A stretch of DNA of 64,000 nucleotides from an uncultured Oscillospiraceae bacterium. GTDB lineage: Bacteria; Bacillota; Clostridia; Christensenellales; CAG-138. Positions 1 to 59,137 of this stretch are shown piece by piece. The notes beneath the pieces are model-generated. The model did no database searches and was not told the origin of the DNA. It worked only from the letters and a program-made list of their open reading frames with translations. The DNA lies in NCBI GenBank assembly GCA_964476505.1, contig CAYZAW010000001.1, positions 58,814 to 122,813 of the forward strand. The letters run 5' to 3'. The translations under genes and the position numbers were made by a program. The stretch's first letter is position 1; the number at the start of each line of letters is the position of its first letter.

Positions 1-3000
1 CGGGGTTGATGAGGATTCCCGGGTCATTGTTGTCACGCGTGGCTTCAAACAGCTTGCAGAACCCGTCGTTGCGGTAGATCAGCCGGATACGCTCTCCCGC
101 TAGCTCGTAGGTGGCAATGCCGCCGGGAATGCTGTCTGTTAGAAGCTTCAGCTTGCTAAACGCATCTCTGTATTCCGTAATATCGCGCCCAATGCCGTAT
201 AAGCCGATCACACTGCCGTTGGATTCTCGCAGTAAATACTTGGAGGTGCTGGAATAGTGCGGAATACCGTCTGCAGAGGGGATGGATTCCACCATGTCCA
301 CGATGGATTTGCCGCTCTCCAGCAGTTGGGTATCGTCTCGCCGGAATTTCTCGGCGGTTTCCGACTCAAACACCTCGTAATCCGTTTTTCCAACGATATC
401 CTTCGGATCGTCGATCCCCGCCATATCCGCGAATGCGCGGCTTACGCAGATGTAGCGGAAGTTTTTATCCTTGGCAAAGGCAAGATCCGTTGTGGAGTCC
501 ATAATGGTGGAAAGCACCACGGGCAGCATTTGCTGGTACGACATTACCTCGTTGGAAATGGGCGTATAGGAGGCGTAAATGGCGTAAACGCCCTCCTCCT
601 TGGGAATGATTCGCCCTACCACATGGAAGGGCTTATAAACGCCCTTGCCGCAGAGGATGCGATAGTCGCAAACGGCATCGCGCTTCTGCCGGATGGCAGC
701 GTCGATCTCCTGCGTGATCACGATTCGGTCGTCCGGGTACACGGCAGAAAGAACGGAGGGGGACGTATAGTCCGCAGGCTCCCGTTCGATCAGCTCCCAA
801 TACCGCTTGTTGAAGTGGATCACAGACAGCTGTTCTCCGTCATACGCGTAAAGGGCAGCGCCGTGGGGCAGGTTATCCAACAGCTCCTTTTGCTGCTTTT
901 CCTCTTTGATCTGCTCGGAGGCATCCGTGAAGTAAAAATTCAAAAATGTATTGCCGAGGGCATCTTTCGAGCTTCGTCCGGATACCTTTGTCCAAATATA
1001 GCCGCCGTTTCCGCGCCTGATACGGTAGCGAGCGGTGATAGCGTCGTTGCTCTGCCGCAGTTGAGACAAAAAGCTTTTGGCAGCGGCGCTGTCTTCGGGA
1101 TGCACGTTTGCCAGCGCGTTGTTTTCGTATAACTCCGTTAAACGGATGTAGCTCATGCCGGTAAGCTTTACCAAGCTTTCGTTAAAGTACACCGGGGTTA
1201 CGGCACCGTCCGGGTGTATGCACAGCCTTGCAAAGCCGCCGGGCATATCCCGCATCATGCTGGCTAAATTTTCGTTGTCGCTGTTGATGCGCGCGGTAAG
1301 ATCGCGCCTAGTCAGCATCACGGCAATGTAATCCCCAAGCGCCGCAAGGCGGTTCACCTGCGTAAGCGGGCGGTGGGGGTCGTCCACACCGATCATTCCC
1401 ACCATCTTGCCGTCGCGGTTGAGCGGCACAGCAAACAGCGAGGTGATACCCTGTGCCAGCAGGCGTTCCTTTTCGTCCGCACGGGCATCGGAAAGCTTTG
1501 CTACGTCGTTGATGGCGTAATACCCGCGCGCCTGGAAGGCATGGAACCAGAATTCAAGTATGGAAAGCGGAATGCCCTGCAGGTTTTCCAGCTCGGCGCT
1601 AATGCCCGGTGCGCATACCTCATAGGTATTGTCGGTAACGCCGCGGTCAAAATCGAACTCAAAGATGTAGGAACGGATACCGCAAAAGTATTCCATGAGC
1701 TTACGCAGCGTGCCGTTGATGCCAACCGAGGTATCCGGCTGCGCCAGCAGCGCGTGCGCGGTTTCGTTGAGGAAGCGTAGCTGCTCGTCTGTATCCTTCA
1801 GCTCCTGCTCTGCATGCTTTTGCTCGGTGATATCCGTAAATATGCAAAGATGCACGTTTTGCTCGATGCCGGTAAAATGCGTGGAGGAAAGCCCAACACG
1901 CACCCAGCGAACAGAGCCGTCCTTCCGTACCAGCCGGTATTCCAGCTGTGCGGGCATGCGGGTCTGATAGGCGTGCACGATGTCTTCCTTCGCTTTTTTG
2001 CGGTCGTCCGGATGAACGGGCGCGTATTTGTCTGTGACCTCCGCCTCGTATTCCTCCCGGGTGTAGCCGTGGATGGCAAAGAATTGCTCGTTGGAGAACA
2101 ACAGCTGAATGCTGCCGTCTTGATCCAGCACGGTTGCGGTGATGCCGCAGCCTACGTCCGCCATGATGGCCTGCATTTGCTCCGCCGTTCTGCGTTCGCG
2201 CTGCTCCGCCTCTTTTTCCTCGGTGATATCCCGCAGGATGGAAAGCTGAACGGGCTCGCTGACCTCAGAGAGCTGACAGATGGAAATGGAGGAACGCAGG
2301 CGAAGCTTGCGGTGATCCCGGGTGACCGCATCGTATTCCACTACTCTTGTGGCTTTTGTATGATTGAGGCGTGCGGTTTCGTCCGCTACCCACGGGCGAT
2401 CCTTGGGGGATATGGTTTGGTAGGGGGAATGCACCTCTTCCTCAAACTGCTCCTTTGTGTAGCCCAGCATGGTATAGTAATGGTCGTTGGCAAACAGGTA
2501 TTGCGCTGCGCCGTCCTTTACCACAGCCGCGATGATGCCGATATCTACATTGTCCATAATGGTTTGCATCCGCGTTGCCGCTTGGCGCTCCGCCTGCTCT
2601 GCTATGCGCTGGGCGGTGATATTCTCGTTGGTGCAATACACAAGGTAGCGGTCTCCCGCCGAGGCGATGACCCGCATGGTGGAGCGCAGGTGTGTTTCCG
2701 CGGGGCAGCCCGGCAGATCACGGAAAATATATTCCTCGGTGACCTCGCTCTTTGCTGCGATGGATTCCTCTAATGCTGCGGTGATTCGCCGCAGCGTTTC
2801 CTCGTCAACATGCTCCGACCAGTTGAGCTTTAGCGCGTCCTCCACGGTGATGCCAACGCCGCCTATCATTTGAGCGTATTTTTCCGTGGCGCGAAGCAGT
2901 TCTATCTTTCCGTTATGGTATTCGTAAATGCATGCACCGCCAACATAGCTGTTGAAAATAAGGGTATCCATGCTTTCCGGGTCCCAGAAAGCGTTGTTAT

Positions 3001-3562
3001 CCAAATTCTCCACCGTTTCCAGCGCAAGCAGGTGTTCCTCCTTGCCCGCGCCTTTACAAAGCGCTTCATACTCCGCTACGGGCATGGGGCGCGCGTATAA
3101 ATAGCCCTGTATGTAATCGCAGCCGATGGAGCGCAGGAAATCCGCCTGCTCTGTCGTTTCCACACCCTCTGCGATCACAGACATATCCAGCCACTTTGCC
3201 ATCCGCACGATGGATTCCACGATGTTGCCGCCCCGCTGGGTGTTGGTGGTGCTCTCCAAGAATTTCATGTCCAGCTTGATGACCTGCGCCGGAACATCCT
3301 TTAATGTGTTGAGCGACGAGTATCCGCTGCCGAAATCGTCTATCTCCACGGTAAAGCCTGCTTTTAAAAGCTGCTTGACCACGGCAATGATCTGCTCGGC
3401 AGACTTGCTGAAGGCGGATTCCGTGATCTCCAAGCGCAGCAGATCCACAGGCAGCCGGTAGGTTTTTACCAGCCCCGTGATCACATCCACGATATCATCC
3501 CTGAAAATATCGTAGCGGGAGATATTCACCGATACCGGAAGCGGGTTTCGCTCTTCGTCGAT
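1..3562 (-). CDS. Continuation of the 3563..4699 reading frame: rest of an EAL phosphodiesterase domain, then a long PAS/GAF/PAS sensor array. The 3' end lies outside the window.
   Basis: Hand translation of the minus strand in the frame of codon 3562-3560 stays open down to position 2. The ORF track shows no closed minus ORF in that frame. Translation gives IDEERNPLPVSVNISRYD, LEITESAF, EIDDFGSGYSSLNTL and GCDYIQGYLYARPMP (EAL motifs), then PAS-like blocks and a GAF-like block (LFAVPLNRDGKMVGMIGVDDPHRP). No ATG with an RBS follows the upstream TAG. Confidence 0.8.
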   Translation of the reverse strand, partial: MDEERNPLPVSVNISRYDIFRDDIVDVITGLVKTYRLPVDLLRLEITESAFSKSAEQIIAVVKQLLKAGFTVEIDDFGSGYSSLNTLKDVPAQVIKLDMKFLESTTNTQRGGNIVESIVRMAKWLDMSVIAEGVETTEQADFLRSIGCDYIQGYLYARPMPVAEYEALCKGAGKEEHLLALETVENLDNNAFWDPESMDTLIFNSYVGGACIYEYHNGKIELLRATEKYAQMIGGVGITVEDALKLNWSEHVDEETLRRITAALEESIAAKSEVTEEYIFRDLPGCPAETHLRSTMRVIASAGDRYLVYCTNENITAQRIAEQAERQAATRMQTIMDNVDIGIIAAVVKDGAAQYLFANDHYYTMLGYTKEQFEEEVHSPYQTISPKDRPWVADETARLNHTKATRVVEYDAVTRDHRKLRLRSSISICQLSEVSEPVQLSILRDITEEKEAEQRERRTAEQMQAIMADVGCGITATVLDQDGSIQLLFSNEQFFAIHGYTREEYEAEVTDKYAPVHPDDRKKAKEDIVHAYQTRMPAQLEYRLVRKDGSVRWVRVGLSSTHFTGIEQNVHLCIFTDITEQKHAEQELKDTDEQLRFLNETAHALLAQPDTSVGINGTLRKLMEYFCGIRSYIFEFDFDRGVTDNTYEVCAPGISAELENLQGIPLSILEFWFHAFQARGYYAINDVAKLSDARADEKERLLAQGITSLFAVPLNRDGKMVGMIGVDDPHRPLTQVNRLAALGDYIAVMLTRRDLTARINSDNENLASMMRDMPGGFARLCIHPDGAVTPVYFNESLVKLTGMSYIRLTELYENNALANVHPEDSAAAKSFLSQLRQSNDAITARYRIRRGNGGYIWTKVSGRSSKDALGNTFLNFYFTDASEQIKEEKQQKELLDNLPHGAALYAYDGEQLSVIHFNKRYWELIEREPADYTSPSVLSAVYPDDRIVITQEIDAAIRQKRDAVCDYRILCGKGVYKPFHVVGRIIPKEEGVYAIYASYTPISNEVMSYQQMLPVVLSTIMDSTTDLAFAKDKNFRYICVSRAFADMAGIDDPKDIVGKTDYEVFESETAEKFRRDDTQLLESGKSIVDMVESIPSADGIPHYSSTSKYLLRESNGSVIGLYGIGRDITEYRDAFSKLKLLTDSIPGGIATYELAGERIRLIYRNDGFCKLFEATRDNNDPGILINP

Positions 3563-4699
3563 CTAGCGCCTTAAATATTGGCAGACTCGCTCCCAAATGC
3601 ATTTATCCAGCTCGTAAACAAAGCCGTTCTTCTCAAATATGGGGATGAACACGCCGGGCGGGATCAAGCCCTTTTCCGGGTGCCGCCAGCGGGCGAGCGC
3701 TTCCGCACCGATGAGTGCGCCCGTGGAGTGGTTGTATTGGGGCTGGAACCACGGCTCAAACTGACCGCCGGAGAGTGCCGATTCCATGTCTGTTACAACT
3801 TCCTGCTCCGAGATGAGGCGTTTGCGAAGAGATTCATCGTAGTTGGCGATCTGCTCATCGTACCGGCCCTTGATGGAATCCGCCGCAAGCATGGCTCTGT
3901 CGTACATGGCGCTGGGGGAAAGGGACAGGTCGTCTACCAGATACCGCCCGATGCTGAAGGTAACGGGGGAGACAAGCCCGTTTACGGTGCTTGCCTGTAT
4001 CCGCATGTTTTTTAAGACTTCTGCGTCCCGCAGCTTGGACGGGTACAGCACGGCAAAATCGTCCGCGGCAACCCGGCATACAATGCCGCCGTGTGCCTCA
4101 AAGCCCTCCCGGAACACATTGGCGATGTACTGTAATACCTCGTCGCCCTTTTTCGTGCCGTATTGATCGTTGATGACCTTGAAGCGGTCGATATCAAAGC
4201 AGGCCATGATGTAATAGCCGGGTGCTTGCGCCTGTACCATTTGCTGCGCCTTCTCAAAGAAGGTTTCCCGGCTGTAAAGCCCTGTGAGCTTGTCCCGCTG
4301 TAACGTATTGACCGTTGCGGCGGCTTCCCGAAGGGCAATGTTGTTTTTCAGGCAGTGGCGGATAACCTCCGGGTTATAGGGCTTCATGATGTAATCGTTT
4401 GCGCCAAGCGTGAGGCATTTGCTTCTGGCTTCTTCGTCCTCGTTGCCGGTGATCATGATAACGGGAATCTGCGATAGCAGCGGGTTCTCCCGAATCCGCT
4501 TCAATACCTCGTAGCCGTCCATTTCCGGCATTACGATGTCCAGCAGTACAGCGGAAACAGACGCGTAGTGATCGGCTAGCGATAAAAGCGCGTCTTTGCC
4601 GCAGGCAGCCTCCAAAACCGTATACTCGGGGGTGAGTGCGGCTTTTAAAAGCTTTCTGTTGGGCGAAATATCATCAACGATCAGCAGCGTTTTTTTCAT
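3563..4699 (-). CDS. Response-regulator receiver + degenerate GGDEF domain + first ~65 residues of an EAL domain, ending at an in-frame TAG
   Basis: ORF track 3563..4810. Start moved to ATG 4699 (MKKTLLIVDD), preceded by GAAAGG. REC motifs are present (LLDIVMPEMDGYE). The GGDEF position reads RVAADDFAVL, which is degenerate. The EAL start reads GAEALARWRHPEKGLIPPGVFIPIFEKNG. Stop is TAG at 3565-3563. Confidence 0.85.
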   Translation of the reverse strand: MKKTLLIVDDISPNRKLLKAALTPEYTVLEAACGKDALLSLADHYASVSAVLLDIVMPEMDGYEVLKRIRENPLLSQIPVIMITGNEDEEARSKCLTLGANDYIMKPYNPEVIRHCLKNNIALREAAATVNTLQRDKLTGLYSRETFFEKAQQMVQAQAPGYYIMACFDIDRFKVINDQYGTKKGDEVLQYIANVFREGFEAHGGIVCRVAADDFAVLYPSKLRDAEVLKNMRIQASTVNGLVSPVTFSIGRYLVDDLSLSPSAMYDRAMLAADSIKGRYDEQIANYDESLRKRLISEQEVVTDMESALSGGQFEPWFQPQYNHSTGALIGAEALARWRHPEKGLIPPGVFIPIFEKNGFVYELDKCIWERVCQYLRR

Positions 4700-4866
4700 A
4701 ACAGCTTGCCTTTCTGTTAAAATACATGTTTTGATGCGGCAACCCGCAAACGATTTCGCACGATAAACGAATACATCATATTCATACCACGAAAATGTGA
4801 AATTTAACATTATATAGAAAAATCTGCTGTATGCTGTAAAAGCGCGTCAACACAAGAGGATTCGTA

Positions 4867-4899
4867 GCAAAAAAGAAGGTGCGGGTTTGTACCGCACCT
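4867..4899 (-). terminator. Rho-independent terminator after the hybrid kinase gene
   Basis: Minus strand reads AGGTGCGG-tacaaac-CCGCACCT followed by TCTTTTTTG, about 40 nt after the stop at 4939. Confidence 0.7.
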
Positions 4900-4938: not shown

Positions 4939-7900
4939 TTATTCGTCTTGCCGTGACAGCATATTCCGGTGCTTGTTGGCATACGCCTTGGTAAGCTCTA
5001 TGCCAAGCACATCCGGCTCAATGGGCTTGGAAACATGCGCGTTCATGCCGGAGGAGAGGGATTTTGTGATGTCCTCGCTAAAGGCGTTGGCGGTCAGCGC
5101 AACGATCTGCACGTTGTGCGCGTCCGGGTGGGAGGAGGCACGAATGAGGCGCGTGGCCTCATAACCGTCCATATTGGGCATTTGAATGTCCATAAGGATG
5201 ATGTCGTAATACCCCTTGGGAGAGGCAAGGAACATATCTAGCGCTATTTTACCGTCCTGCGCGCAATCGCAGGTAGCGCCGAATTTTACATGGATGATGT
5301 TTTCCGCTACCATGCGGTTCATGGCGTTGTCCTCCGCCAGAAGGATGCGCATATTTCTAAGATCGTGCGCTGAAGGCACGGATTCCGGCTGGGCGGTGTG
5401 CCCGCCGGAGAGCGTTGCGAACAGGTCGAACAGGGTGGATTGATACAGCGGCTTGGATAAAAACAGGTTAGCGCCCGCAGACTGAATGCTTTCGTCGGAC
5501 TGATAATGGTCGTAGGCGGACGTAACGATAATGTAGGGCTCGCTGCCCAGCATTTCCCGGATGCAGCGGGTGGTTTCCAAACCGTTCATGTTCGGCATTT
5601 TCCAGTCTACCAAGCACACGTTATAGGGATCATCCGTCTTGGCAGCGCGGTTTAGCTCCGTAAGCGCTGCTTCGCCGCTTTCCGCGCACAGGTGGCGCAC
5701 GCCGATGCGCCCCAGCGCGGCGGAAAGATACTCCCTGTCGGCAGCCTCGTCGTCCACGGCAAGAACGTGCAGGTTCTGCGCGCCCTCTAATATGCCGGTG
5801 ACGGCTTCCGCCTCACTTTTGATGAACGGCAGATCAACAATAAAGGTTGTGCCGTGCCCTTGACTGCTTTTTACGGTCACGACCCCGTCCATCATACTGA
5901 CCAAGCTGCCAACGATAGACAGCCCTAAGCCGTTTCCGCCGTATTTCTGCGCGGTCACGGCGTTTTCCTGTTCAAAGGGCTTGAACAGGCGCTCCTGCAT
6001 TTCGTCGCTCATGCCGCAGCCGGTGTCTACCACTTCAAAATGGATGATGACCTTGTCCTTATGCACCGACTGTTGGCTGATGCATAACCGGATAGAGCCC
6101 TGCTCGGTAAACTTGAGGGCGTTATTGAGCAGGTTGAGTAGGATCTGGTTGACCCGAAGCGAGTCGCCCATGAGCCATTCGTCAACGGAGGTCAAATAAA
6201 CGGTTTCGTAGGATAGCTGCTTTTGCCGGCATTGCTGCTCGTAAAGCTCGGTAATGTTTGTGATCAGGCGAATAAAATTGAAGGGCGCATGCGCCAGCTT
6301 CATTTTGCCGGATTCGATGGAGGACACATCCAGTACATCGTTGATAACGGACAGCAGCTGCTTTGCTGCGGTATTGCAATAGGCAAGGTAGGCCTCCGTT
6401 TGCGCGGCGTCCGAATCCTTCGCCAGCTCCATAAAGCCGATGATGGCGTTAAGCGGCGTGCGAAGCTCGTGGCTCACACGGGACAGGAATTGGGACTTTG
6501 CGCTGCTGGCCTGATTTGCGGCGGCAAGGGCTTCGGAAAGCGCCCTGCTCTTTTCTGCTTCCTCGCGGATCAGGTCGGTCACATCCTCGCGCATCATCAC
6601 AATGATCAAGCGCTGGGGATCGATATAATACTGGGTGATTCGCTTGTACCGCACCGTGCCGTCGGGCCGCCGCATGCGATAGGTGTACACGAACCGCCCG
6701 CCGTCCTTCAGGTGGGCATGTATGGTATCGATCAGCGAGTTTTGTATCGCCATTTCCCGATCCTCCGGGAACACGCAGTCGTTATACAAAGAGCGCGTAA
6801 CGGCATCCGCATCGTCTCCGAACTGCGGCGGCATGTGGTACAGGCCTGCCTTTTCCAACACGTCAAAATGCTTGGTTCTGCCGTCGATTCGCGCAACAAA
6901 GTCGTAATTGTCCGTTGCGATGCTGTGGTACATCAGCTCCTGCATCTTTTCCGCTTCAATATCGTACCAGTAGCTGAACAGCAGTATGTTTCCGCTGGCG
7001 GGGTCTCGAAGAAGCCGCAGCGAATTGCGTACCCATGTGACCATGCCGTTTGGCAGCATTCTGCGGTACTCCAGCTTGAATTCGCTTTCGCCGGCGGCAA
7101 AACGCGAAAGGAGCTTGGCAGAATCGTTTAGCGCAAGAAAGCGCGCCCGTTCGTCGTCGTCGATCAAAAGCGATGCGTTTGCCTGCCCGTAGGAGAATAC
7201 GGTTCGCTGGTCTTCCGGCACCACGGAGCCGTCCTGATAGCGGTAATCCAGCATTTCGCCGGTGGTAAGGTCGAAGGTTGCATGGGCAATGAGGTTATCC
7301 TCCGCCATGAAATCCCGCTCTTTTTGCAGCTCCCGTTCGTATTTTACAACGGCCTCCTGCCGCTGGGTCTCGTCGGTAGACATGCCAACAGCCCGGAAGG
7401 GCTTGCCGTTTTCGTCATAGGCGTTGGTGTAGCGGATATGCTCGTACCAGTAGCTCTTGCGGTCGGACGTTAGCACCTTGAATACGCCCTCGGCAAAGGG
7501 TTCGCCGGCAAACAGCTTGTTGTACATCTCTAAAAACGCCGCGGCACTGTCCGGGTGTACAAAACCGCTTTCTATCAGGCTTTCGGGCACGTTAGGCACC
7601 ACTTGCTGAAAGCCGTGCATTTGTGTGGAGTTTTGATATTGAATGATGCAGCGCCGCTTAAAGTCGTACTCCCAAATGCTGACGCTGGTGTTTTTCATAG
7701 CTACGTCAATGATCTGCTCGGCCTTTTTCAGCTCCGTCAGGTCGGTATAGGTGGCGTATACGGTGGCGGTGCCGTCTGCATGCGTAACTGCTTCCGCACG
7801 GATGTGCACCCACTTGAGCCCGCCGTCATCGGTCACGTAACGATACGTCATTTCCTGCTCGCCGCGTTCCTGCGCCATGCTAAGCAGCTTTTCCTGCACC

Positions 7901-8778
7901 ATGCCCCGGTCGTCCGGGTATACGCCTGCTAAAATATCCTGCTGCATGCGTTCCCGCAGGGTGCCGGCGTCCGTTTGGCAGATGGCCGCAAGGCCGCCGG
8001 AAAGATACTGGATGTCTAACCGCCCGTCCCTTGTAACGTCGCAGATGGCTAAGCCGCAGGCAAAATGCTCCACGGTTTCGGCAAGCTGCTTAAGCTGGGC
8101 GCGTTCACTGCGCACGCGCACATTTTGGAAGAACAGGAACGCCAAAACAAGGCATAGCATGTTGGCGGGGAAGATCATCAGCCAACCGGGGTTCAACAGC
8201 TGCACGGGAATGGCGATTCCCAGTATCAACGGCTGTAAAACAAGCACCGCCTTGGGGTAGTTTTCGGGAATGTGCTTTCGCCTAAACCATACCAAAAGCA
8301 GCATACCGATGGCATATAAATAATACAGCCCAACCATGCCTAGGAGAAACAGCGGTCCGCGCGTGTATTCAAAATTGGGGCCCAGCGAATAGAAAAACTC
8401 CGTCCATGGGTTAGAGAGCACCAGCAGCCCGTAAATACCGTACAGCACCCATATAGCTGTTGCGAGATGCCTGCGACCGTAGTCGTTGCCCTCGTACAGG
8501 ATGGTCAGCGCATACATAAACAGGGTTACGATCATCAGCTCCTGCGTGAGCAGGTAGAGCATCATGAACAGATGGTACAGGAAATGCGAGACCGGAAAAT
8601 CCATGGCAACGCTGGCGGCGATATCGATAAGCGTCATAATGATGCTGGCACGCAGGCACCAAACAAAGCTTTTGTTTCGTGCCGTGTACTGATCCTCGGG
8701 GAGCATGCGTACCGTGTAATAATACAACGCACACATTACAAGCAGCCCTACGATATCCGTATCGATATGCCAGAACAT
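4939..8778 (-). CDS. Hybrid sensor histidine kinase (polytopic membrane N-terminus, PAS repeats, HisKA, HATPase_c, two receiver domains)
   Basis: ORF track 4939..8823. Start moved to ATG 8778, 8 nt after GGAGGAA. Motifs: SHELRTPLNAIIGF (H-box), DTGCGM...GGNGLGLSIV (ATPase), VDDEAADRE...DWKMPNMNG and LAEDNAMNR...MDIQMPNMDG (two REC domains). Confidence 0.9.
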   Translation of the reverse strand: MFWHIDTDIVGLLVMCALYYYTVRMLPEDQYTARNKSFVWCLRASIIMTLIDIAASVAMDFPVSHFLYHLFMMLYLLTQELMIVTLFMYALTILYEGNDYGRRHLATAIWVLYGIYGLLVLSNPWTEFFYSLGPNFEYTRGPLFLLGMVGLYYLYAIGMLLLVWFRRKHIPENYPKAVLVLQPLILGIAIPVQLLNPGWLMIFPANMLCLVLAFLFFQNVRVRSERAQLKQLAETVEHFACGLAICDVTRDGRLDIQYLSGGLAAICQTDAGTLRERMQQDILAGVYPDDRGMVQEKLLSMAQERGEQEMTYRYVTDDGGLKWVHIRAEAVTHADGTATVYATYTDLTELKKAEQIIDVAMKNTSVSIWEYDFKRRCIIQYQNSTQMHGFQQVVPNVPESLIESGFVHPDSAAAFLEMYNKLFAGEPFAEGVFKVLTSDRKSYWYEHIRYTNAYDENGKPFRAVGMSTDETQRQEAVVKYERELQKERDFMAEDNLIAHATFDLTTGEMLDYRYQDGSVVPEDQRTVFSYGQANASLLIDDDERARFLALNDSAKLLSRFAAGESEFKLEYRRMLPNGMVTWVRNSLRLLRDPASGNILLFSYWYDIEAEKMQELMYHSIATDNYDFVARIDGRTKHFDVLEKAGLYHMPPQFGDDADAVTRSLYNDCVFPEDREMAIQNSLIDTIHAHLKDGGRFVYTYRMRRPDGTVRYKRITQYYIDPQRLIIVMMREDVTDLIREEAEKSRALSEALAAANQASSAKSQFLSRVSHELRTPLNAIIGFMELAKDSDAAQTEAYLAYCNTAAKQLLSVINDVLDVSSIESGKMKLAHAPFNFIRLITNITELYEQQCRQKQLSYETVYLTSVDEWLMGDSLRVNQILLNLLNNALKFTEQGSIRLCISQQSVHKDKVIIHFEVVDTGCGMSDEMQERLFKPFEQENAVTAQKYGGNGLGLSIVGSLVSMMDGVVTVKSSQGHGTTFIVDLPFIKSEAEAVTGILEGAQNLHVLAVDDEAADREYLSAALGRIGVRHLCAESGEAALTELNRAAKTDDPYNVCLVDWKMPNMNGLETTRCIREMLGSEPYIIVTSAYDHYQSDESIQSAGANLFLSKPLYQSTLFDLFATLSGGHTAQPESVPSAHDLRNMRILLAEDNAMNRMVAENIIHVKFGATCDCAQDGKIALDMFLASPKGYYDIILMDIQMPNMDGYEATRLIRASSHPDAHNVQIVALTANAFSEDITKSLSSGMNAHVSKPIEPDVLGIELTKAYANKHRNMLSRQDE

Positions 8779-8934
8779 GATCCGTATTCCTCCAGTCGCG
8801 CGGTTGTTGTTTATCGAACGCAAAGAGCGTTGGTTTGGCTGTTTTTAAGAGATAAAACTTTAAACATGACAGTATTCCTTATAATAAGTATAAACTTTGT
8901 TATGCAAATCATAACAGCAAACAGGCGGTTCTTT

Positions 8935-10646: not shown

Positions 10647-11621
10647 TTATCCGGCGTACGGAACCACTTCGAAAAACTCGCTTTCGTTTATGCCGTCGAT
10701 CAGCCAGCCCCAGTTTTCCGTATCCCGCACAACGGCAATGCGGCCTTCTCGCCCGTCCTCAGTAACGAACCCAACGTAGGTTTCCAAGTCCGTTTGTGTA
10801 GTAGCCAACTTTACGCCCTTCTCCAAGGTGGAGGGGGCGCTTTCTCCGTCAAAGGTAACGGGCAGCTCCCGGGTGGTGATCAACGTGCAGTACCCCCAGT
10901 ATTCCGGGTCGAGCATGGAGGTGTCCCGCGTCCAAACGCTGCCGGGAACGCGCTCCAGTGCGAAGGCGGTTTCGCTTAGCCTATAAGGGATCTTTGCACC
11001 CCATGTGCCAAGGATATCTACGGTGGCCTCCACAGTGATCACACCGTTATCGATATCCATTACAACGCCGGAGCAGGAAAGCGGCAGCCAGTCACCGCTT
11101 TCTTCATCGTCATACGGGGATTCCGCCAGCATCAGCTCGCCGTTTGCATAACGCATCAGCCAAGTGGCGTAATCGCAGGATTCCATATCGCCGGAAACCA
11201 ACAGCTCCATCACGCCGTCGTTGTCAACATCGCAGGCAAAGCCGGTAAGGCCGTACACGATGTCCACCGCAAGGCTGGCGGGCTCGCCGCTTGCAGGCGT
11301 TACCGTGACCTGGCGCTTTTCCAAGAGGTAATCCGCTTCGGGAATCACGGTTACGATGATCGTTTCTGTTGCGCCGTCGCCGTCCAAGTCGCACTCCAGG
11401 GGCGTTTCCTCGTTAAATGTTAGATATTTGGTAGCATTGGGCGCATCCGGCGTGGCGGGGGGCTCCGCTACGGGGGCGGGCGTGTCGCTTACGGCAGGGC
11501 TTGCAGGCTGCTCGCTTGCGGCTTGCGGGGTGTTTTCCACGGCGGCAGGCTGTGTATTGGCACAGGCTGCAAGCGACAGCATAAGCGCTGCGCAAAGAAG
11601 TATAGCAATGGTCTTCTTCAT
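10647..11621 (-). CDS. Hypothetical lipoprotein with FG-GAP/VCBS-like Asp-rich motifs
   Basis: ORF track 10647..11678. Start moved to ATG 11621 (MKKTIAILLCAALMLSLAAC, a lipobox) after GAAAGGA. Contains CDLDGDGATE and CDVDNDGVMELLVSGD motifs and an Ala/Pro-rich linker. Confidence 0.7.
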   Translation of the reverse strand: MKKTIAILLCAALMLSLAACANTQPAAVENTPQAASEQPASPAVSDTPAPVAEPPATPDAPNATKYLTFNEETPLECDLDGDGATETIIVTVIPEADYLLEKRQVTVTPASGEPASLAVDIVYGLTGFACDVDNDGVMELLVSGDMESCDYATWLMRYANGELMLAESPYDDEESGDWLPLSCSGVVMDIDNGVITVEATVDILGTWGAKIPYRLSETAFALERVPGSVWTRDTSMLDPEYWGYCTLITTRELPVTFDGESAPSTLEKGVKLATTQTDLETYVGFVTEDGREGRIAVVRDTENWGWLIDGINESEFFEVVPYAG

Positions 11622-11879
11622 TGATTTCAGTCCTTTCATGCGGGCAGGCTGTATACACAGCACCGCATTGTTTTTCATACATGATTATAACGCATGGACG
11701 GCGCTGTTAGTTGCAAATTGATTATGAATTTTCCTTGAAACGCTTTTAAAGAATGACCGTGGAAATACTGGGCGGTTTTAGGTACAATAGTAGCGGCGCG
11801 AGGCATATAGCAAACGGACGCTGCGATCAACAGTCGATAAGAAAAAAACACGAAGCCGTATATAGGGAAGGAGAACCGC

Positions 11880-12381: not shown

Positions 12382-13470
12382 TTATCCCCACAGGATGCGA
12401 TTTTTGCCCTGCGCTTTTGCGCGATACAGCACAGAGTCTGCTTTTTGTATCCATTCTTTTGCGGAAACGTTGCCCTCCCGGGTCACAAAGCCGCCGCTGA
12501 ATGTAATTTGCAGGGAAGGCGCAAAGGAATACCGGCATTCGGAAAACGCTTCCCGCAGACGCTCGCAAAGCATATACGCGCTCTCCTTATCCATTTCCTC
12601 CAACACGAGTACGAGCTCCTCACCGCCGTAGCGGTAGGCGTTCACATGATCGCTTGCCCGAAGCTGCTTGATGCAGGTGGCAAGCTGCACAAGCACTTCG
12701 TCACCGGCGGCATGCCCAAAGGTATCGTTGATCTGCTTAAAATCATCCAGATCCAGCATCAACAAATGCTTGGACTTGGCATGCGAGCTGCCTTCAATGA
12801 TTTTGGGAAGCTGCTGGTTCAATGCCCGCCGGTTGCGGATGCCCATGAGCGGGTCAAGATTGCTTTCCTCGATCAACTGCTTTTGCTGGGTATTGCTTTT
12901 TAAAATGTATTGAATTTGTTCTGCCACGTAACGAATCAGCAGTGCCGCGGCGATATAGGAAATGCAGATCACCAGCGCTGCAAGCAGTATATCCGTTAAA
13001 AGCTGCGGGTCGCCCTTTCTAAGCTCAATAGACGCCTGCCTTGCCGCCAGCCCCAGCGAGCACAGGGAGGCAATGCTGATGCCAAGGGTAAGAGCCTTGT
13101 CTGCAAACAGGATGCTCACAAAAATCGCCACCGTGGGCAGCATCAGAAGCGGCCCGTAAACATAGTGGATCACCTGCGTATTGGCGCACAGAAAGTAGAT
13201 CAATAAGCACGCGCAGGTGTTTTTAAAGCGATTGGAAAGCCGGGCCGAATTCAGCACCCAAACCGTTGCCAGAATAACGATGATGTTTAATGATGAAGGA
13301 ATATAAATAAACCGCGCACGATAAAGGGGCAGCGGTAAAAACAGCGTGTTGTGCGCGGAATCGTACAGGTAGATGGCGATTTCGGTCACGGTGCCGATGG
13401 CGGCAAGCAATATACAGATGCGTAGCAGCTCGATGCGCCATTTTTTGTTGAGCGTTTCCTGAAAATCCAT
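12382..13470 (-). CDS. Membrane-anchored diguanylate cyclase (GGDEF domain)
   Basis: ORF track 12382..13662. Start moved to ATG 13470 after AAGGAG. About 190 aa of TM helices, then RNRRALNQQL...LDLDDFKQINDTFGHAAGDEVL...YRYGGEELVLVL. The motif is GGEEL, with RASD upstream. Confidence 0.85.
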   Translation of the reverse strand: MDFQETLNKKWRIELLRICILLAAIGTVTEIAIYLYDSAHNTLFLPLPLYRARFIYIPSSLNIIVILATVWVLNSARLSNRFKNTCACLLIYFLCANTQVIHYVYGPLLMLPTVAIFVSILFADKALTLGISIASLCSLGLAARQASIELRKGDPQLLTDILLAALVICISYIAAALLIRYVAEQIQYILKSNTQQKQLIEESNLDPLMGIRNRRALNQQLPKIIEGSSHAKSKHLLMLDLDDFKQINDTFGHAAGDEVLVQLATCIKQLRASDHVNAYRYGGEELVLVLEEMDKESAYMLCERLREAFSECRYSFAPSLQITFSGGFVTREGNVSAKEWIQKADSVLYRAKAQGKNRILWG

Positions 13471-14016
13471 GCATATCTCCTTTGGCCGGCAGCGGTCAAT
13501 ACCAAAATTATACTCTATATGTATCATATACCCGAAATGCACAATATGAAATAAAAATCGACGTTTTAAGAATAGGGGTTCTATTGCGGCAGGCGGCGTT
13601 TCGCAATAGAATAGCGGCAGAAGCCGGATGGGTGCGAAAATGATGCCGTGTGCCGGATACAAAAATAAAAAATCCCCGGCCCAAGCTTACCGGGAATTTT
13701 TCGCTCCGACGTGTTCGCCGGAAAGGGTGCACCCGCGTATTGCGGTACACGGGTACTTTTTCTGAGATGTGGGGAGTTCCCTCATAGGCGGGCCGGTTTC
13801 TCAAGCCGACCCTTTTGGAACGGAAGGATTCTCAACATCATGAGCATAGCACCCCCAAACGGGCAAAACAACCGGGTTTTGGGCATTTTGACGCTTTGTT
13901 CACGGGCAGGGCGAAAGTCTTATCAGTATCTTAACGAGACCTTTTGCATATTACTCTTTATAATATCTTTATAAGTTCTTCACGCTGTTGTGGAGCTTAT
14001 GTTGGGGGGCGCAACC

Positions 14017-15111
14017 ATGCAGAAAGGCAGATTAAAAGAGCGGCTGGGCAGTCTGTTTCCCTTAAGCCTGAGGGACACACTGTTCATGTTTTTTATTCTG
14101 ATCGTTGCGGGGGTGTTCTGCTTTGCGCTGCAGGGGCAGGACAGCGGCTATTCCTATGTATCCATGTTGTTTTTTCTTGCGGTGGTGCTCATCTCCCGCT
14201 TTACTAACGGCTATTTTTACGGCACAGCCGCCTCTATTTTGGGCATGTTCTGCGTGAATTACATGTTTACCTACCCGTACTTCGCATTCAACTTTTCCAT
14301 TGCCGGGTACCCGGTCACGTTTATCAGCATGCTGTGCGTGTCCATCATCACCAGTACTATGACCACCCGTATCAAGGAGCAGGAAAAGCTGCGGGCTGCC
14401 GCCGAGCAGGAGAAGCTAAGAAGCAACCTGCTTCGCGCCATCTCGCATGATTTGCGTACGCCGCTTACCTCCATTTTAGGGGCGGCAAGCACCCTCTTGG
14501 AAAACGACGGGCACATTGAAAACACGCAGCGCACGGAGCTTTTGCGCAATATCCAGCAGGAGGGGGAGTGGCTGATCCGCATGGTGGAGAACCTGCTTTC
14601 GGTCACACGCTTTCAGGGTGGCATCGCTTCCATCCATAAGCAGCCGGAGGCGGTGGAGGAGATCGTAGCGGCGGCGGTACAAAAATTCCGCAAGAATTAC
14701 GATGTGCTGCCCGTTACCGTTTCGGTGCCGGACACGCTGTTGGAAATTCCTATGGACCCGATTTTGATCGAGCAGGTACTGCTCAATCTTTTGGAAAATG
14801 CGGTGAAACACGCGAAGGACGCCACGCGTATCACATTATGCGTATATCGGGAGGAGCAAGCCGCCCGTTTTGAGGTGTGGGACGACGGCGCGGGCATTCC
14901 GGATGCCCAGCTTCGCACGTTGTTCAAGGGGTATTTGTATCGGGCGGAACAGGAGGCGGATGCCAACCGCAATATGGGGGTTGGGCTTTCCGTATGTACA
15001 GCCATCGTGCAAGCGCACGGCGGCACGCTGGAGGCGCAAAACGTCAGCGACGGCGTTGTGTTCCGTTTCTGGCTGCCTTTGGAAAGAAAGGAGGAGGAGC
15101 ATGCAATCTAA
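14017..15111 (+). CDS. Sensor histidine kinase, KdpD C-terminal-like (DUF4118 membrane domain + HisKA + HATPase_c), lacking the N-terminal KdpD/Usp sensor
   Basis: ORF track 13990..15111. ATG 14017 follows GGGGGG by 7 nt. Four-TM block, H-box SHDLRTPLTSILG, ATPase motifs NLLENAVKH and DDGAGIP...GVGLSV. Confidence 0.85.
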   Translation: MQKGRLKERLGSLFPLSLRDTLFMFFILIVAGVFCFALQGQDSGYSYVSMLFFLAVVLISRFTNGYFYGTAASILGMFCVNYMFTYPYFAFNFSIAGYPVTFISMLCVSIITSTMTTRIKEQEKLRAAAEQEKLRSNLLRAISHDLRTPLTSILGAASTLLENDGHIENTQRTELLRNIQQEGEWLIRMVENLLSVTRFQGGIASIHKQPEAVEEIVAAAVQKFRKNYDVLPVTVSVPDTLLEIPMDPILIEQVLLNLLENAVKHAKDATRITLCVYREEQAARFEVWDDGAGIPDAQLRTLFKGYLYRAEQEADANRNMGVGLSVCTAIVQAHGGTLEAQNVSDGVVFRFWLPLERKEEEHAI

Positions 15112-15796
15112 ACCGTGTATCCTCATTGTGGAGGACGAAGCCAGCATCAGTAATTTTATCAGTACAGCGCTATCTGCCAACGGTTATGCGCCGCTGATCG
15201 CCTGCAACGGGCAGGAGGCGCTTGCTATGGTGACCTCCCACTGCCCGGATGCCATTCTTCTCGATTTGGGGCTTCCGGACGTGGACGGGCAAAAGATATT
15301 GCGGATGGTACGGGAATGGTCGCCGGTGCCCATCATTGTGGTATCCGCGCGGGGGCATGAGCGAGACAAGGTGGAGGCGCTGGACTTGGGTGCGGACGAT
15401 TATATCACCAAGCCCTTCGGCATTTCAGAGCTGTTGGCACGGGTACGCACCGCGCTCAGGCACAGCCGTAGCAAGGATGAGCCCGTGCAGGACGATGTGT
15501 TTTGTGTGGGCGGCTTGACGATCGATTTTGATAGGCGTTACATCAAGGTGGACGGAAAAGCCGTGCATTTAACGCAGATCGAGTATAAGATCGTGGCGCT
15601 GCTGGCACGTTACGCAGGCCGGGTATTGACCCACGACTATATTTTAAAAAGCGTTTGGGGGCCGCTTGCCAACTGCGACAACCAAATCCTTCGGGTCAAC
15701 ATGGCAAACATCCGGCGCAAGCTGGAGCAAAACCCTGCCGAACCCAGATATATCCATACAGAGGTCGGCGTGGGCTACAGAATGATAGAAGAATAA
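15101..15796 (+). CDS. OmpR-family response regulator, KdpE-like
   Basis: In frame within ORF 14870..15796. ATG 15101 follows GGAGGAGGAG and overlaps the kinase stop by 11 nt. Receiver (ILIVEDEASI...LDLGLPDVDG) plus winged-helix output (HLTQIEYKIVALL...VGVGYRM). Confidence 0.9.
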   Translation: MQSKPCILIVEDEASISNFISTALSANGYAPLIACNGQEALAMVTSHCPDAILLDLGLPDVDGQKILRMVREWSPVPIIVVSARGHERDKVEALDLGADDYITKPFGISELLARVRTALRHSRSKDEPVQDDVFCVGGLTIDFDRRYIKVDGKAVHLTQIEYKIVALLARYAGRVLTHDYILKSVWGPLANCDNQILRVNMANIRRKLEQNPAEPRYIHTEVGVGYRMIEE

Positions 15797-18035: not shown

Positions 18036-19253
18036 TTGGAAGCAATTGTAGATTTCATTCAATCAACGGGTTTTTATTTATTGCTTGAGCAGCCAAAGTC
18101 GCTCATCATGATGGCGGTTGCATGCGTATTGCTGTATTTGGCGATCGTGAAAAAGTTTGAGCCGCTGCTGCTGCTGCCCATTGCCTTTGGTATGCTGTTA
18201 ACCAATCTGCCCGGCGCGGGTCTGTATCACGGGGATCTATTCGCAGGCGGGCATGTGCAGTGGAGCGCGTTTGTAGACGGAATCGCTATGCCAAACGGCA
18301 CCACGGAGGCACCGGGCTTAGTGGACATTCTGTATCTAGGCGTAAAGCTTGGCATTTACCCCTCGCTCATTTTCATGGGTGTAGGTGCTATGACGGATTT
18401 TGCGCCGCTTATCGCCAACCCCAAGAGCCTGCTTTTGGGCGCAGCCGCGCAGTTGGGCATATTCATCACGTTCTTGGGCGCGCTGGCGCTGACGAATGTA
18501 TTCCCCTCCTTGGAGTTCGGCGTGCGGGAAGCGTCCTCTATCGGCATTATCGGCGGGGCGGACGGCCCAACTGCCATTTATGTAACAACAAAGCTTGCGC
18601 CGCATCTGCTCGGGCCTATCGCGGTGGCAGCATACTCCTATATGGCGCTGGTGCCGGTCATTCAGCCACCCATCATGAAGGCGCTGACCACCTCGGAGGA
18701 GCGCAGCATCGTGATGGAGCAGCTTCGTCCGGTCTCCCCCAAGGAAAAGGTGCTGTTCCCCATCGTGGTCACCATTTTCGTATCGCTGCTTTTGCCCTCC
18801 GCCGCGCCACTTATCGGCTTCCTCATGCTGGGCAACCTGTTTAAGGAAAGCGGCGTGACCGAGCGCCTGTGCAAGACCGCGCAAAACGAGCTGATGAACA
18901 TCGTTACCATCTTCTTGGGCGTATCAGTTGGCGCAACAGCTACCGCAGACGCGTTTTTGAACCTGCAAACGCTGATGATACTGGCGCTGGGTGTTATCGC
19001 GTTCTCCGGCGGTACTGCGGGCGGCGTGCTGTTGGCTAAGCTGATGAACCTGTTTGTGAAAAAGAAGATCAATCCTTTGATCGGTTCCGCAGGCGTTTCC
19101 GCCGTGCCTATGGCGGCGCGTGTTTCGCAGGTGGTGGGGCAGAAGGAACGCCCCGGCAACTTCCTGTTGATGCATGCCATGGGTCCCAACGTGGCAGGGG
19201 TCATCGGCTCCGCGATCGCGGCAGGCGTATTCCTTGCACTGTTTATGCAGTAG
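18036..19253 (+). CDS. Sodium ion-translocating decarboxylase beta subunit (OadB/GcdB/MmdB family)
   Basis: 405-aa polytopic ORF. TTG start 8 nt after AGGAGG. The N-terminus ([13 protein letters not shown]...[24 protein letters not shown]) and overall sequence are typical of the family. Confidence 0.9.
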
Positions 19254-36628: not shown

Positions 36629-37294
36629 ATGGAAAAACGACCGGCGCGTTCTGTTATCAAAAGAAAGGCGGTCACAGCAGTACTGCTTTTACTTGCCATC
36701 ACGCTGTTTCTGTTTTACATTGTAGAGCGCAAGCTGCAGCCCGCGCTTCGGGCGGTGGCGGATATCCGCGTGCAGTCCATCGTATCCAGCGCTATGTACG
36801 CTGCCATACAAGACACCGTGGCGAAAAACACGGAGCCTTTGATCGATACCATGCAGACCGTTGATCAGGTGTTTTATGTACAGACCGATACTGCGGCGCT
36901 GAACCGCTTTTCCACTGCCTGCGCGGCGGCGGCTGACCGCAGCGTTGCAGGCTTGGGCAAGCAGGGCGTTACCATCCCTTGGGGCAACGTTAGCGGCGTG
37001 TCCTTCTTGGCGGGCTTTGGGCCGGATATCACCCTGCATTTTGCGCCGGAAGGCAACATTACCGTGTACTATTTTAGCGAGTTTTACAGCGCCGGTATCA
37101 ATCAGACCCTGCACCGCATCATACTGCATTTGCAGGCGGATGTGGTGATGGTGCTGCCCGGCAGCACGGAGCTTACCACCGTCACGGCGGAGGCCGTTGT
37201 GGCGGAGCATATCATTGTTGGCAAGGTGCCGGAGGCGTATACGGACGTTTCCAATGAGGAAGACCTGTTGAACTTGGTGCCCGAGGCGGATTAA
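36629..37294 (+). CDS. yunB: Sporulation protein YunB
   Basis: 221 aa with an N-terminal TM helix. Resembles YunB by recall (IVERKLQPAL...IRVQSIVSSAM...VYYFSEFYSAGINQT). Confidence 0.8.
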   Translation: MEKRPARSVIKRKAVTAVLLLLAITLFLFYIVERKLQPALRAVADIRVQSIVSSAMYAAIQDTVAKNTEPLIDTMQTVDQVFYVQTDTAALNRFSTACAAAADRSVAGLGKQGVTIPWGNVSGVSFLAGFGPDITLHFAPEGNITVYYFSEFYSAGINQTLHRIILHLQADVVMVLPGSTELTTVTAEAVVAEHIIVGKVPEAYTDVSNEEDLLNLVPEAD

Positions 37295-39394: not shown

Positions 39395-41887
39395 TTACTC
39401 GGCGGCGGGCTCTTCTGCCTTTGCCTTTTTCTTAGCGGGAGCCTTCTTCTTGGGGGCTTCCTCTACGGGCGCTTCAGCAGCTTCCGCAGCTTCTACGGCA
39501 GCTTCCGCGACCTTCTTCTTGGCGGGAGCCTTCTTCTTGGGGGCTTCCTCCACGGCGGCGGGGGCTTCTTCCTCTAACTGCAGGCCTTGGAACAGGTCTG
39601 CCAGGCTGGTGGTGGCGGACTGTACCGGGGGCAGCTGATAATCTCCATCCTCGCTGTTGCGGCGGGGACGACGCTCACGCTGCTCGGTGCGGTCGCTCTG
39701 CGGCGCACGCTCTGCACGGGGGGCGCGGGGCTCGCTGGAAGCGGGCTGCTCGGAACGCTGCTGGCGCTGCTGGGCTTCTGCGGCGCGCTGCTCGGCACGC
39801 TCTGCAAACTGACGGTCGCGCTCGGCCTTCTCGGCTGCAATCTTCTCGGCAAGCTCCGGGTTCTCCTCAAGGATAACGTCCTTGCGGGAGAGGCTGATGC
39901 GCTTGGCTTCCGGATTAACATCCAGAACCTTGCAGCGTACGGTATCGCCAACGTTGATTTCATCTTCTACCTTGGCAATGCGCTGTACGCTTACCTGAGA
40001 GATGTGAATCAAACCGTCGATGGTGGGCTCAAGCGCTACGAATGCGCCGAAGGGAACGATGCGAACTACCTTGCCCTCTACGGTGCTGCCGATGGGGTAT
40101 TTCTCGGCGGCCATGGTCCAGGGCTTGGGCTGGAGCTGCTTGTACCCCAAGGATACGCGCTGCTTCTCGGTATCTACATTCAAAACCAGAACCTCGATCT
40201 CCTGCCCGATCTTTAATACATCAGAGGGATGCTTTACCCGGCCCCATGCAACATCCGTTACATGAACGAGGCCGTCGATGCCGCCGATGTCTACGAAAGC
40301 GCCAAAGTCCGTTAAGCGGCGTACAACGCCCTGCATTTTGGAACCGACTTCAAGCGTTTTCCATTTTTCTGCTTTCTCGGCTTCCATCTCAGCCAGAAGT
40401 ACGTTCTTCTGAGAGGCGACGATGCGCTTGCGCTGACGGTCGACCTCGATGATGGAAAGGCGCATGGGCTTGCCGATAAACTCATTCAGGTTTTCCACAT
40501 ACTTGGTGGAAACGTGAGAGGCGGGCACGAATGCGCGTACGCCGTTGATGGAGGCGATGATGCCGCCCTTGATAACTTCCTTACCCTCGGCCTCGAACAC
40601 CTTGCCCTCTAGGTTATCGTCTGCCATCAGCTCGTCCCAAAGCTTGCGGCCTTCCACGCTCTTGCGGGAAAGAAGCACATTGCCTTCGCCGTCGTTGACC
40701 TTCAGGACTTCCACTTCGATGGAGTCTCCAACCTTAACAACATCCGCGGGATTCACGTCCGGATCGGATGAAAACTCATTCTTGGGAATGAAACCGTCCG
40801 ATTTGTAGCCGATGTTCACGCTGACCTCGCCGTCAACGATCTGCACAACAGAGCCGGTGATGATCTGCCCGTTGTGGATACGCTTCATGGTCTTTTCAAA
40901 GGCCTCGGCGAAGCTGTCGGTGTCCAGCACAGCATCGGTGGGCTCTCCGGCGGCGGCTTTCTCGCCCTCCGCAGGTTCGGCTATGATGGCCTCTGCCTCG
41001 GGGGCATCCATTTTCGCCTGATTGGCTTCCACCTCAGTGGATTCAGCCGTCGTCTTCTCGAGTTCGCTCATTACAGTAAAAACCTCCCTAATCATCCAAT
41101 CTGGTGCCGAAGCACCCGCAACAATACCTATTATATCATTGCTTTGGTAATTTTCAAGTACAATTTGCCCCGTATTCTCGATGAAATCGGTGTTTTTGCA
41201 GTGCCGGGAGCACAGCTCGGCTAATTTTTGCGTATTGGCGCTGTTACGACCGCCTATCACCAGCATTTTGGTGCATTCTGCCGATAGCTCCTCCGCTTCC
41301 TTCTGGCGCTGGGTGGTGGTGTCACAAATGGTGTCGAAAACGGTAAGCGTTTGGCAGCGGGGGCGAAGGGCGTTTGCAATCGCCTCAAACTGATTTCGGG
41401 GCAGCGTTGTTTGGGAAACCAGCACCGCGTCGTGCAAAGATAATTCGTTGCATGCGTCGGGAGAAAGCAGCACATGCACATCGTTTCCTGCCCAGCCGCG
41501 AATGCCGATCACCTCCGGATGCGCCGCTTTTCCCGCGATGCATACGGTTTTTCCTTCGGCTGCTGCCTGCTCTGCAATGCGGTGGATCTTCTTTACATAC
41601 GGGCAGGTGGCGTCGATCACGGTAAGACCCCGGTCGCGGCAAGCCTCGTACACGGCCTTTGGCGCGCCGTGGGAGCGGATGATCACCGTGCCGCCCGCGG
41701 GCACGTTATCTACGGCTTCCACCGGCAGCACGCCCTTTTGCTTGAGCCTTTCAATTACATCCGCATTATGCGTCAGTTCTCCCAGCGTGTATACTGGGGC
41801 ATGCTGTAAGGCAGCGTCCTCCGCCAGCTTTACCGCGCGGCGGATGCCAAAGCAAAAGCCGATGTTCTTTGCCAGCTTTACGATCAT
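39395..41887 (-). CDS. ispH: Bifunctional 4-hydroxy-3-methylbut-2-enyl diphosphate reductase (IspH) / ribosomal protein S1 fusion with a Lys/Ala/Glu-rich tail
   Basis: 830 aa. N-terminal LytB (GFCFGIRRAV...SHGAPK...CPYV), then four S1 repeats (GSVVQIV..., GKVFEAEG..., GVVRRLTDFGAFVDI..., GKVVRIVPFGAFVAL). The ATG overlaps the plsC stop (ATGA). Confidence 0.92.
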   Translation of the reverse strand: MIVKLAKNIGFCFGIRRAVKLAEDAALQHAPVYTLGELTHNADVIERLKQKGVLPVEAVDNVPAGGTVIIRSHGAPKAVYEACRDRGLTVIDATCPYVKKIHRIAEQAAAEGKTVCIAGKAAHPEVIGIRGWAGNDVHVLLSPDACNELSLHDAVLVSQTTLPRNQFEAIANALRPRCQTLTVFDTICDTTTQRQKEAEELSAECTKMLVIGGRNSANTQKLAELCSRHCKNTDFIENTGQIVLENYQSNDIIGIVAGASAPDWMIREVFTVMSELEKTTAESTEVEANQAKMDAPEAEAIIAEPAEGEKAAAGEPTDAVLDTDSFAEAFEKTMKRIHNGQIITGSVVQIVDGEVSVNIGYKSDGFIPKNEFSSDPDVNPADVVKVGDSIEVEVLKVNDGEGNVLLSRKSVEGRKLWDELMADDNLEGKVFEAEGKEVIKGGIIASINGVRAFVPASHVSTKYVENLNEFIGKPMRLSIIEVDRQRKRIVASQKNVLLAEMEAEKAEKWKTLEVGSKMQGVVRRLTDFGAFVDIGGIDGLVHVTDVAWGRVKHPSDVLKIGQEIEVLVLNVDTEKQRVSLGYKQLQPKPWTMAAEKYPIGSTVEGKVVRIVPFGAFVALEPTIDGLIHISQVSVQRIAKVEDEINVGDTVRCKVLDVNPEAKRISLSRKDVILEENPELAEKIAAEKAERDRQFAERAEQRAAEAQQRQQRSEQPASSEPRAPRAERAPQSDRTEQRERRPRRNSEDGDYQLPPVQSATTSLADLFQGLQLEEEAPAAVEEAPKKKAPAKKKVAEAAVEAAEAAEAPVEEAPKKKAPAKKKAKAEEPAAE
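39435..39550. repeat. 29-nt exact direct repeat, 87 nt apart, inside the tail-coding region
   Basis: GCGGGAGCCTTCTTCTTGGGGGCTTCCTC occurs at 39435-39463 and 39522-39550, encoding EEAPKKKAPAKKK twice. Confidence 0.8.
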
Positions 41888-59004: not shown

Positions 59005-59137
59005 GTTGCGCGTACCTCGTACTAAAGTAAATAGCATACCATTTCATAGTATATCACAAAATCCGTTTTCGTGGCGGGAATTGTTTGCTGTTGCAGGAAT
59101 TCCCTTTGATTTTCAAATTATCGTCACAAATCCCCTC

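Follow-up and report, generated by a model that had tools for sequence, protein, structure and literature searches.

An in-frame amber codon in place of a conserved tryptophan in a c-di-GMP phosphodiesterase gene of an uncultured Clostridia bacterium from anaerobic digesters: very probably an ordinary nonsense allele

The 64,000-nucleotide stretch of contig CAYZAW010000001.1 analyzed here (the window) carries on its minus strand a long signalling gene in which an amber codon falls in frame, inside a conserved domain, and the question that this locus raises is whether the stop marks an inactivated gene, a recoded codon, the boundary of two genes or an error of the assembly. A preliminary description of the DNA, made without database searches, had listed as candidates a recent nonsense mutation, a sequencing or assembly error, amber suppression or read-through, and a phase-variable switch. 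The first of these is favored over the others by the analysis reported here, according to which the amber codon is very probably a plain, ordinary nonsense mutation in a gene for a cyclic di-GMP (c-di-GMP) phosphodiesterase, that is, a pseudogene or loss-of-function allele.

Translated on the minus strand from the ATG at 4699 to position 1, the frame has 378 sense codons before a stop and a further 1,187 open codons after it, up to the window edge, and an independent frame scan places the TAG at 3563-3565 with 427 open codons on one side and 1,187 on the other. The DNA across the stop reads TTA AGG CGC TAG ATC GAC GAA, ELDKCIWERVCQYLRR being the last residues before it and IDEERNPLPVSVNISRYD those that follow in the same frame. 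The start is the ATG at 4699, which is accompanied by a Shine-Dalgarno-like AGAAAGG, a site that is missing at the ATG 4810 given by the mechanical list of open reading frames (ORFs). Judged from a homologue of 1,637 residues (P0128), about 80 codons of the gene would lie beyond the window edge. Chance cannot reasonably account for 1,187 open codons that also give strong domain matches.

When the stop is replaced by an X, Pfam returns a single EAL match that runs through it (residues 305-538, profile positions 4-236 of 236, 225.8 bits against a cutoff of 31.3), preceded by REC (residues 6-116, 89.1 bits) and GGDEF (residues 135-271, 71.6 bits) and followed by several PAS/GAF matches. The acidic pocket and phospho-acceptor of the REC domain are present (DD at residues 9-10, D54 in LLDIVMPEMDG and K105 in IMKP), and the GGDEF signature reads AADDF at residues 211-215 instead of an intact GG(D/E)EF motif. 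This degeneration is also found in 205 of about 210 homologues; the forms read in homologues are xADNF or AADDF. The catalytic signatures of the EAL domain are all found in the conceptual read-through (EAL 333, VNIS 391, EITE 423, DDFGSGYSS 453, K473, EGVE 509 and QGY 529). However, the domain does not lie in one uninterrupted frame, because TAG is codon 379 and falls inside it, leaving Glu 333 of the EAL motif upstream and the remaining catalytic residues (391-531) downstream, and neither side would be able to fold as a complete EAL barrel. Translation, the frame scan, the continuous Pfam match and the located motifs thus bear out what the preliminary description had read from the letters, namely a TAG inside a contiguous EAL domain, a frame open for 1,187 codons past it and a degenerate upstream GGDEF motif.

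The stop is present in data obtained separately from the source assembly. The exact 378-residue product occurs in five Logan assemblies (SRR5891506, SRR5891507, SRR29243444, SRR8925827 and SRR8925783), which come from read sets assembled independently and from at least three accession series, and it is also found in a metagenome-assembled genome (MAG) at NCBI. Among the five, SRR8925827 is the metagenome of digestate taken at a full-scale biogas plant (PMC7842101). The DNA of the five Logan contigs equals that of the window throughout a stretch of about 1.6 kb that surrounds the TAG. Moreover, the longer contigs of SRR5891506 and SRR5891507 carry four and two substitutions, respectively, relative to the window at other places (15431, 12431, 8855 and 8854), which indicates that they are not copies of the same assembly.

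A comparison with homologues reveals which residue was lost. Protein queries covering the N-terminal 835 residues, the C-terminal 1,176 residues and 325 residues centered on the stop were run against a database of 5.8 billion proteins, where the family proved very large in Clostridia, with thousands of matches. Of the 120 homologues that best match the N-terminal 835 residues, 98 have Trp in the column of the TAG, and so do 170 of 199 once homologues of the C-terminal part are included, which answers the preliminary description's question of which residue aligns to the stop. Trp is also found there in the top database matches and in the two best solved EAL structures, PDB 8arv_A and MorA 4rni_A, among PDB relatives with E values down to 2e-55. 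Since TGG is the only Trp codon and Trp is conserved at this column, the lesion is best read as one G>A transition, from TGG to TAG. The closest colinear homologue, P0128, is annotated as an "EAL domain-containing protein" in an Eubacteriales MAG (GCA_028699375.1, JAQVUR010000081.1); it shares the domain order, aligns over residues 1-1556 with 65% identity and has no interruption, Trp standing at the column in question (LRRWIDEKRNPLPVSVNISRYD / QQLRRWIDEKRNPLPVSVNISRYD / CQQLRRWIDEKRNPLPVSVNISRYD). Nonetheless, its upstream neighbor is unlike the hybrid histidine kinase found in the window, synteny is therefore unsupported, and strict orthology to the interrupted gene is not established.

In mechanistic terms, a single G>A transition would have converted TGG into amber at residue 379 of a REC/degenerate-GGDEF/EAL/PAS-GAF phosphodiesterase of about 1,640 residues. 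Ribosomes would then terminate at this codon and release a 378-residue REC/degenerate-GGDEF fragment ending in a 74-residue EAL stub, only the first quarter of the barrel, while what remains of the EAL domain, together with the sensor modules, would go untranslated except for background near-cognate read-through. The fragment is expected to have neither cyclase nor phosphodiesterase activity, as the preliminary description had proposed, a prediction supported by the incomplete catalytic domain and the AADDF signature. The event was probably recent, because the 1,187 downstream codons carry no second lesion and the catalytic motifs of the EAL domain are intact. Also, the paralogous family is large in Clostridia, and this redundancy would make the loss easy to tolerate. 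We infer the loss of function, the recency of the event and the absence of read-through from the sequence; the stop itself lies one substitution from a conserved codon, is reproducible in independent data and is followed by no credible restart.

Three observations weigh against this interpretation. The first is that three or more sequencing projects have yielded the allele, in genotypes that differ slightly and with an undamaged downstream frame, which would also be expected if it were tolerated or maintained; the sampled populations show no allele other than TAG. The second is that neither a TGG allele nor any other further allele of this lineage was found in the searched collections, so that the mutation is deduced from homologues of at most 68% identity. 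The protein database contained no protein of more than 81% identity spanning the stop, and neither a sense allele nor a downstream product of the lineage. A search for the exact DNA flanking the stop, the codon itself being left as NNN, gave no match in contigs of species-representative genomes or in JGI metagenome contigs, a codon-degenerate pattern with free third positions gave none in the JGI metagenome contigs, and a protein-seeded scan of genome contigs found only distant relatives (at most 37% identity), the generic REC motif MPEMDGYE dominating its matches too strongly for the scan to be informative. The third is that the scan for tRNA(CUA) and pyl genes covers the 64-kb window, and a suppressor tRNA elsewhere in the genome is possible.

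A variant in which the amber allele is maintained in wild populations of anaerobic digesters, either because loss of the phosphodiesterase is adaptive or through low-level or conditional read-through of UAG, is considered improbable. If the loss were adaptive, raised c-di-GMP and aggregation in reactors would be an example of its benefit. If the codon were read through, the cell would make a small, metered dose of the full-length sensor-phosphodiesterase of 1,640 residues, and the REC/degenerate-GGDEF fragment would be the main product. Either case would be a modestly interesting instance of nonsense-gated signalling, but nothing found here points to either.

Functional read-through or suppression of the amber codon is the next alternative. 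UAG-379 could be decoded by a suppressor tRNA, as pyrrolysine or by efficient near-cognate pairing, perhaps conditionally, and a full-length phosphodiesterase would be made. The 1,187 open downstream codons with their intact catalytic motifs are consistent with this, and so are the persistence of the allele in several natural samples, the base A that follows the stop (TAGA is not the strongest termination context) and the scarcity of TAG in the window, where it is the rarest stop and ends about two or three of about 45 credible genes. The tabulation of stops that the preliminary description had called for, run within the window, gives 33 TAA, 11 TGA and 6 TAG for some 50 long ORFs; of those ending in TAG, several are spurious antisense ORFs. 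However, TAG is a working terminator in this genome. It ends two genes of the window whose products have full-length Pfam matches, namely that of an HI0933-like flavoprotein (43160-44410), directly followed by a ribosome-binding site (RBS) and the ATG of cmk, and that of an OAD beta-subunit (18036-19253). Moreover, the ancestral residue would be a plain Trp and not a known pyrrolysine position, and the recurrence of TAG at the same position in homologues, as expected for programmed recoding, was not found. The tRNA and Rfam scans revealed no tRNA(CUA) in the 64 kb, a single Val-CAC tRNA being all that they detected, and no pyl-like gene occurs among the 40 window ORFs scanned with Pfam. Finally, RNA folding across and downstream of the stop was no better than that of shuffled sequences (z = -1.5). 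Functional suppression is thus very unlikely, and this candidate of the preliminary description finds no support.

The junction at 43160-43162 on the minus strand was itself considered as a sign of genome-wide recoding and was rejected. There the hexamer TAGATG (43157-43162) makes the stop of the HI0933-like gene abut the in-frame ATG of cmk and mimics an amber junction of 416 and 222 codons. This is a true gene boundary, with AAAGGAGAG upstream of the cmk ATG and separate, complete Pfam domains on either side.

A functional split gene is likewise very unlikely. Under this reading the 378-residue fragment would be accompanied by a C-terminal protein with its own start, made of the partial EAL domain and PAS/GAF modules, and the two would act apart or reassemble. 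In its favor, the downstream frame is intact and an automatic gene caller run on the Logan contigs puts a start at GTG 3529, 12 codons past the stop. However, neither this GTG nor any other start is credible: no in-frame ATG, GTG or TTG in the 300 codons past the stop has a Shine-Dalgarno match of at least 5 nucleotides, and the matches of 4 nucleotides are badly spaced or deep inside the domain. In addition, the cut falls inside the EAL barrel, parting Glu 333 from residues 391-531 and leaving neither piece as a complete domain. Every homologue listed is one continuous protein that matches REC, GGDEF, EAL and PAS, and none of about 330 homologues examined is split at the position of the TAG. 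The view of the preliminary description, of a single-codon interruption rather than a gene boundary and of no ATG with an RBS after the stop, agrees with the continuous EAL match, the uninterrupted homologues with Trp and the scan of start codons.

An artefact of sequencing or assembly would require only a one-base error, and the source is indeed a MAG. Nonetheless, the same TAG with identical flanks in five independently assembled read sets, two of which differ from the window at other positions, excludes this candidate for practical purposes. A phase-variable or contingency switch that turns the gene on and off is extremely improbable, its one point of support being that the stop lies in a signalling gene. 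Neither homopolymers nor short tandem or inverted repeats were seen at the site or near it (the only repeat nearby is a chance 12-mer, 182 nucleotides away), a substituted base does not switch back and forth at high frequency, and the contigs are unbranched through the site in all five samples. In sum, positive evidence for any of these four rivals, read-through, a split gene, an artefact or phase variation, is slight or absent.

Two side observations concern the Logan contigs. The four longer ones (L001-L004, from different samples) all end at window position 3329, 234 nucleotides past the TAG, inside the codons of the conserved EIDDFGSGYSSL motif. This shared end is probably a de Bruijn branch caused by a k-mer in common with paralogous EAL genes elsewhere in the genome, and strain variation downstream of 3329 may be an alternative cause; no second copy of the sequence at this end was found within the window. 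Also, at 8854-8855 the window has TT where the SRR5891506 and SRR5891507 contigs have CC (minus strand). These adjacent substitutions are the only differences common to both contigs and lie a short way upstream of position 8778, where the hybrid histidine kinase gene is called to start.

A comparison with known systems places the gene among the REC/degenerate-GGDEF/EAL phosphodiesterases (PF00563), whose solved relatives include P. aeruginosa MorA (4rni/4rnh), RocR (3sy8) and 8arv. The window gene has the same domain order as the REC-GGDEF-EAL phosphodiesterases, all the catalytic signatures in its read-through and a degenerate GGDEF, as in most members. In contrast with the solved proteobacterial EAL enzymes, it is cut at the conserved Trp and its output domains are N-terminal, followed by more than 1,000 residues of PAS/GAF. 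This output-first layout is common to many uncharacterised Clostridia homologues. The family members collected here (P0001-P0217) have an N-terminal REC/degenerate-GGDEF/EAL part and then 500-1,500 residues of PAS/GAF, and some add HisKA/HATPase matches (e.g., P0031, P0041, P0177 and P0191). The family is abundant in uncultured Clostridia and, as far as these database searches show, uncharacterised.

With ordinary internal-stop pseudogenes the locus shares a premature stop one step from a conserved codon and inside a conserved domain, membership in a large paralogous family and the absence of a restart. It differs from them in that it has no second lesion and is the sole allele in several environmental samples, which suggests that the allele is either young or tolerated. 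On the other hand, the likeness to pyrrolysine recoding in mtmB, mtbB and mttB is limited to the presence, in an anaerobic Firmicute, of a long ORF with a TAG in frame, whereas the protein family is different, homologues have Trp, no pylT or pylSBCD is found in the window and TAG is a true terminator nearby. In kind, the locus is most likely an ordinary internal-stop pseudogene of a known enzyme family.

Table 1. Coordinates of the interrupted gene and its surroundings in the window.
Feature	Position	Strand	Location or basis
Segment of the predicted truncated product, 378 codons	3566..4699	-	REC (4684-4352), degenerate GGDEF (4297-3887; AADDF 4069-4055), first 74 EAL residues
EAL motif, residues 333-335	3703-3695	-	In the 378-codon upstream segment
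In-frame TAG at the conserved Trp position	3563..3565	-	In the EAL barrel, after the strand of the EAL motif and before the VNIS (Asn) strand
Remaining EAL residues, 380-538, downstream catalytic signatures intact	3086..3562	-	Pfam and motif location
C-terminal sensor region, frame open as far as the window edge, with four or more PAS-type modules and a weak match to GAF	2..3085	-	Pfam
Shine-Dalgarno-like AGAAAGG, 9 nucleotides upstream of ATG 4699	4709..4715	-	Sequence reading
Intrinsic-terminator-like hairpin and T-run closing the upstream hybrid histidine kinase gene	4877..4899	-	Upstream of the interrupted gene
Hybrid histidine kinase, 1,279 residues, PAS-HisKA-HATPase-REC-REC	4939..8778	-	Directly upstream of the interrupted gene

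Because the hairpin and T-run listed in Table 1 end the upstream kinase gene, the interrupted gene would start its own transcription unit or leader. The kinase is a possible phosphodonor for the REC domain of the interrupted gene. Signalling genes are dense in this part of the window (4939-8778, 12382-13662 and 13990-15796): the second of these intervals encodes a GGDEF protein of 426 residues in the mechanical ORF, or 362 in the Logan gene call, and the third a DUF4118 histidine kinase and an OmpR-type regulator.

The 40 ORFs scanned with Pfam are ordinary chromosomal genes, among them pgk, tpiA, gpmI, rnr, mnmA, polA, coaE, clpC, the gene of a YunB sporulation protein (36629-37294) and two-component systems. 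An IspH (LytB)-ribosomal protein S1 fusion of 830 residues is encoded at 39395-41887 on the minus strand and is annotated as bifunctional in NCBI (MDD3920152.1). The YunB gene and this fusion fit a spore-forming Clostridia host, and exact protein matches, e.g., for cmk (MDD3920150.1) and ispH-rpsA (MDD3920152.1), assign the window to a contig of an NCBI MAG labelled "Eubacteriales bacterium". The host is an uncultured spore-forming Clostridia ("Eubacteriales") bacterium of anaerobic digesters. Three ORFs have no significant Pfam match, 10647-11678 (343 residues), 47457-48569 (370 residues) and 56965-59037 (690 residues), the last with only a sub-threshold beta-propeller match.

The downstream product called from GTG 3529 (at least 1,176 residues, window 1-3529) was not returned by the protein database, although both the contig of the NCBI MAG and the 378-residue product are present there. 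The 378-residue product has no NCBI protein accession, and the intact SDF and OAD-beta calls likewise have none, which makes the missing accession uninformative as to whether the gene was annotated as a pseudogene.

For annotation, the locus should be recorded as one pseudogene with an internal stop rather than as two genes. The more general point is methodological: when the exact truncated product turns up in independent assemblies of public read sets, an in-frame stop in a MAG can be taken as real, and homologues then give the ancestral codon. For the organism the finding matters little, since it would amount to one inactivated paralogue in the large c-di-GMP repertoire of an uncultured digester Clostridia bacterium.

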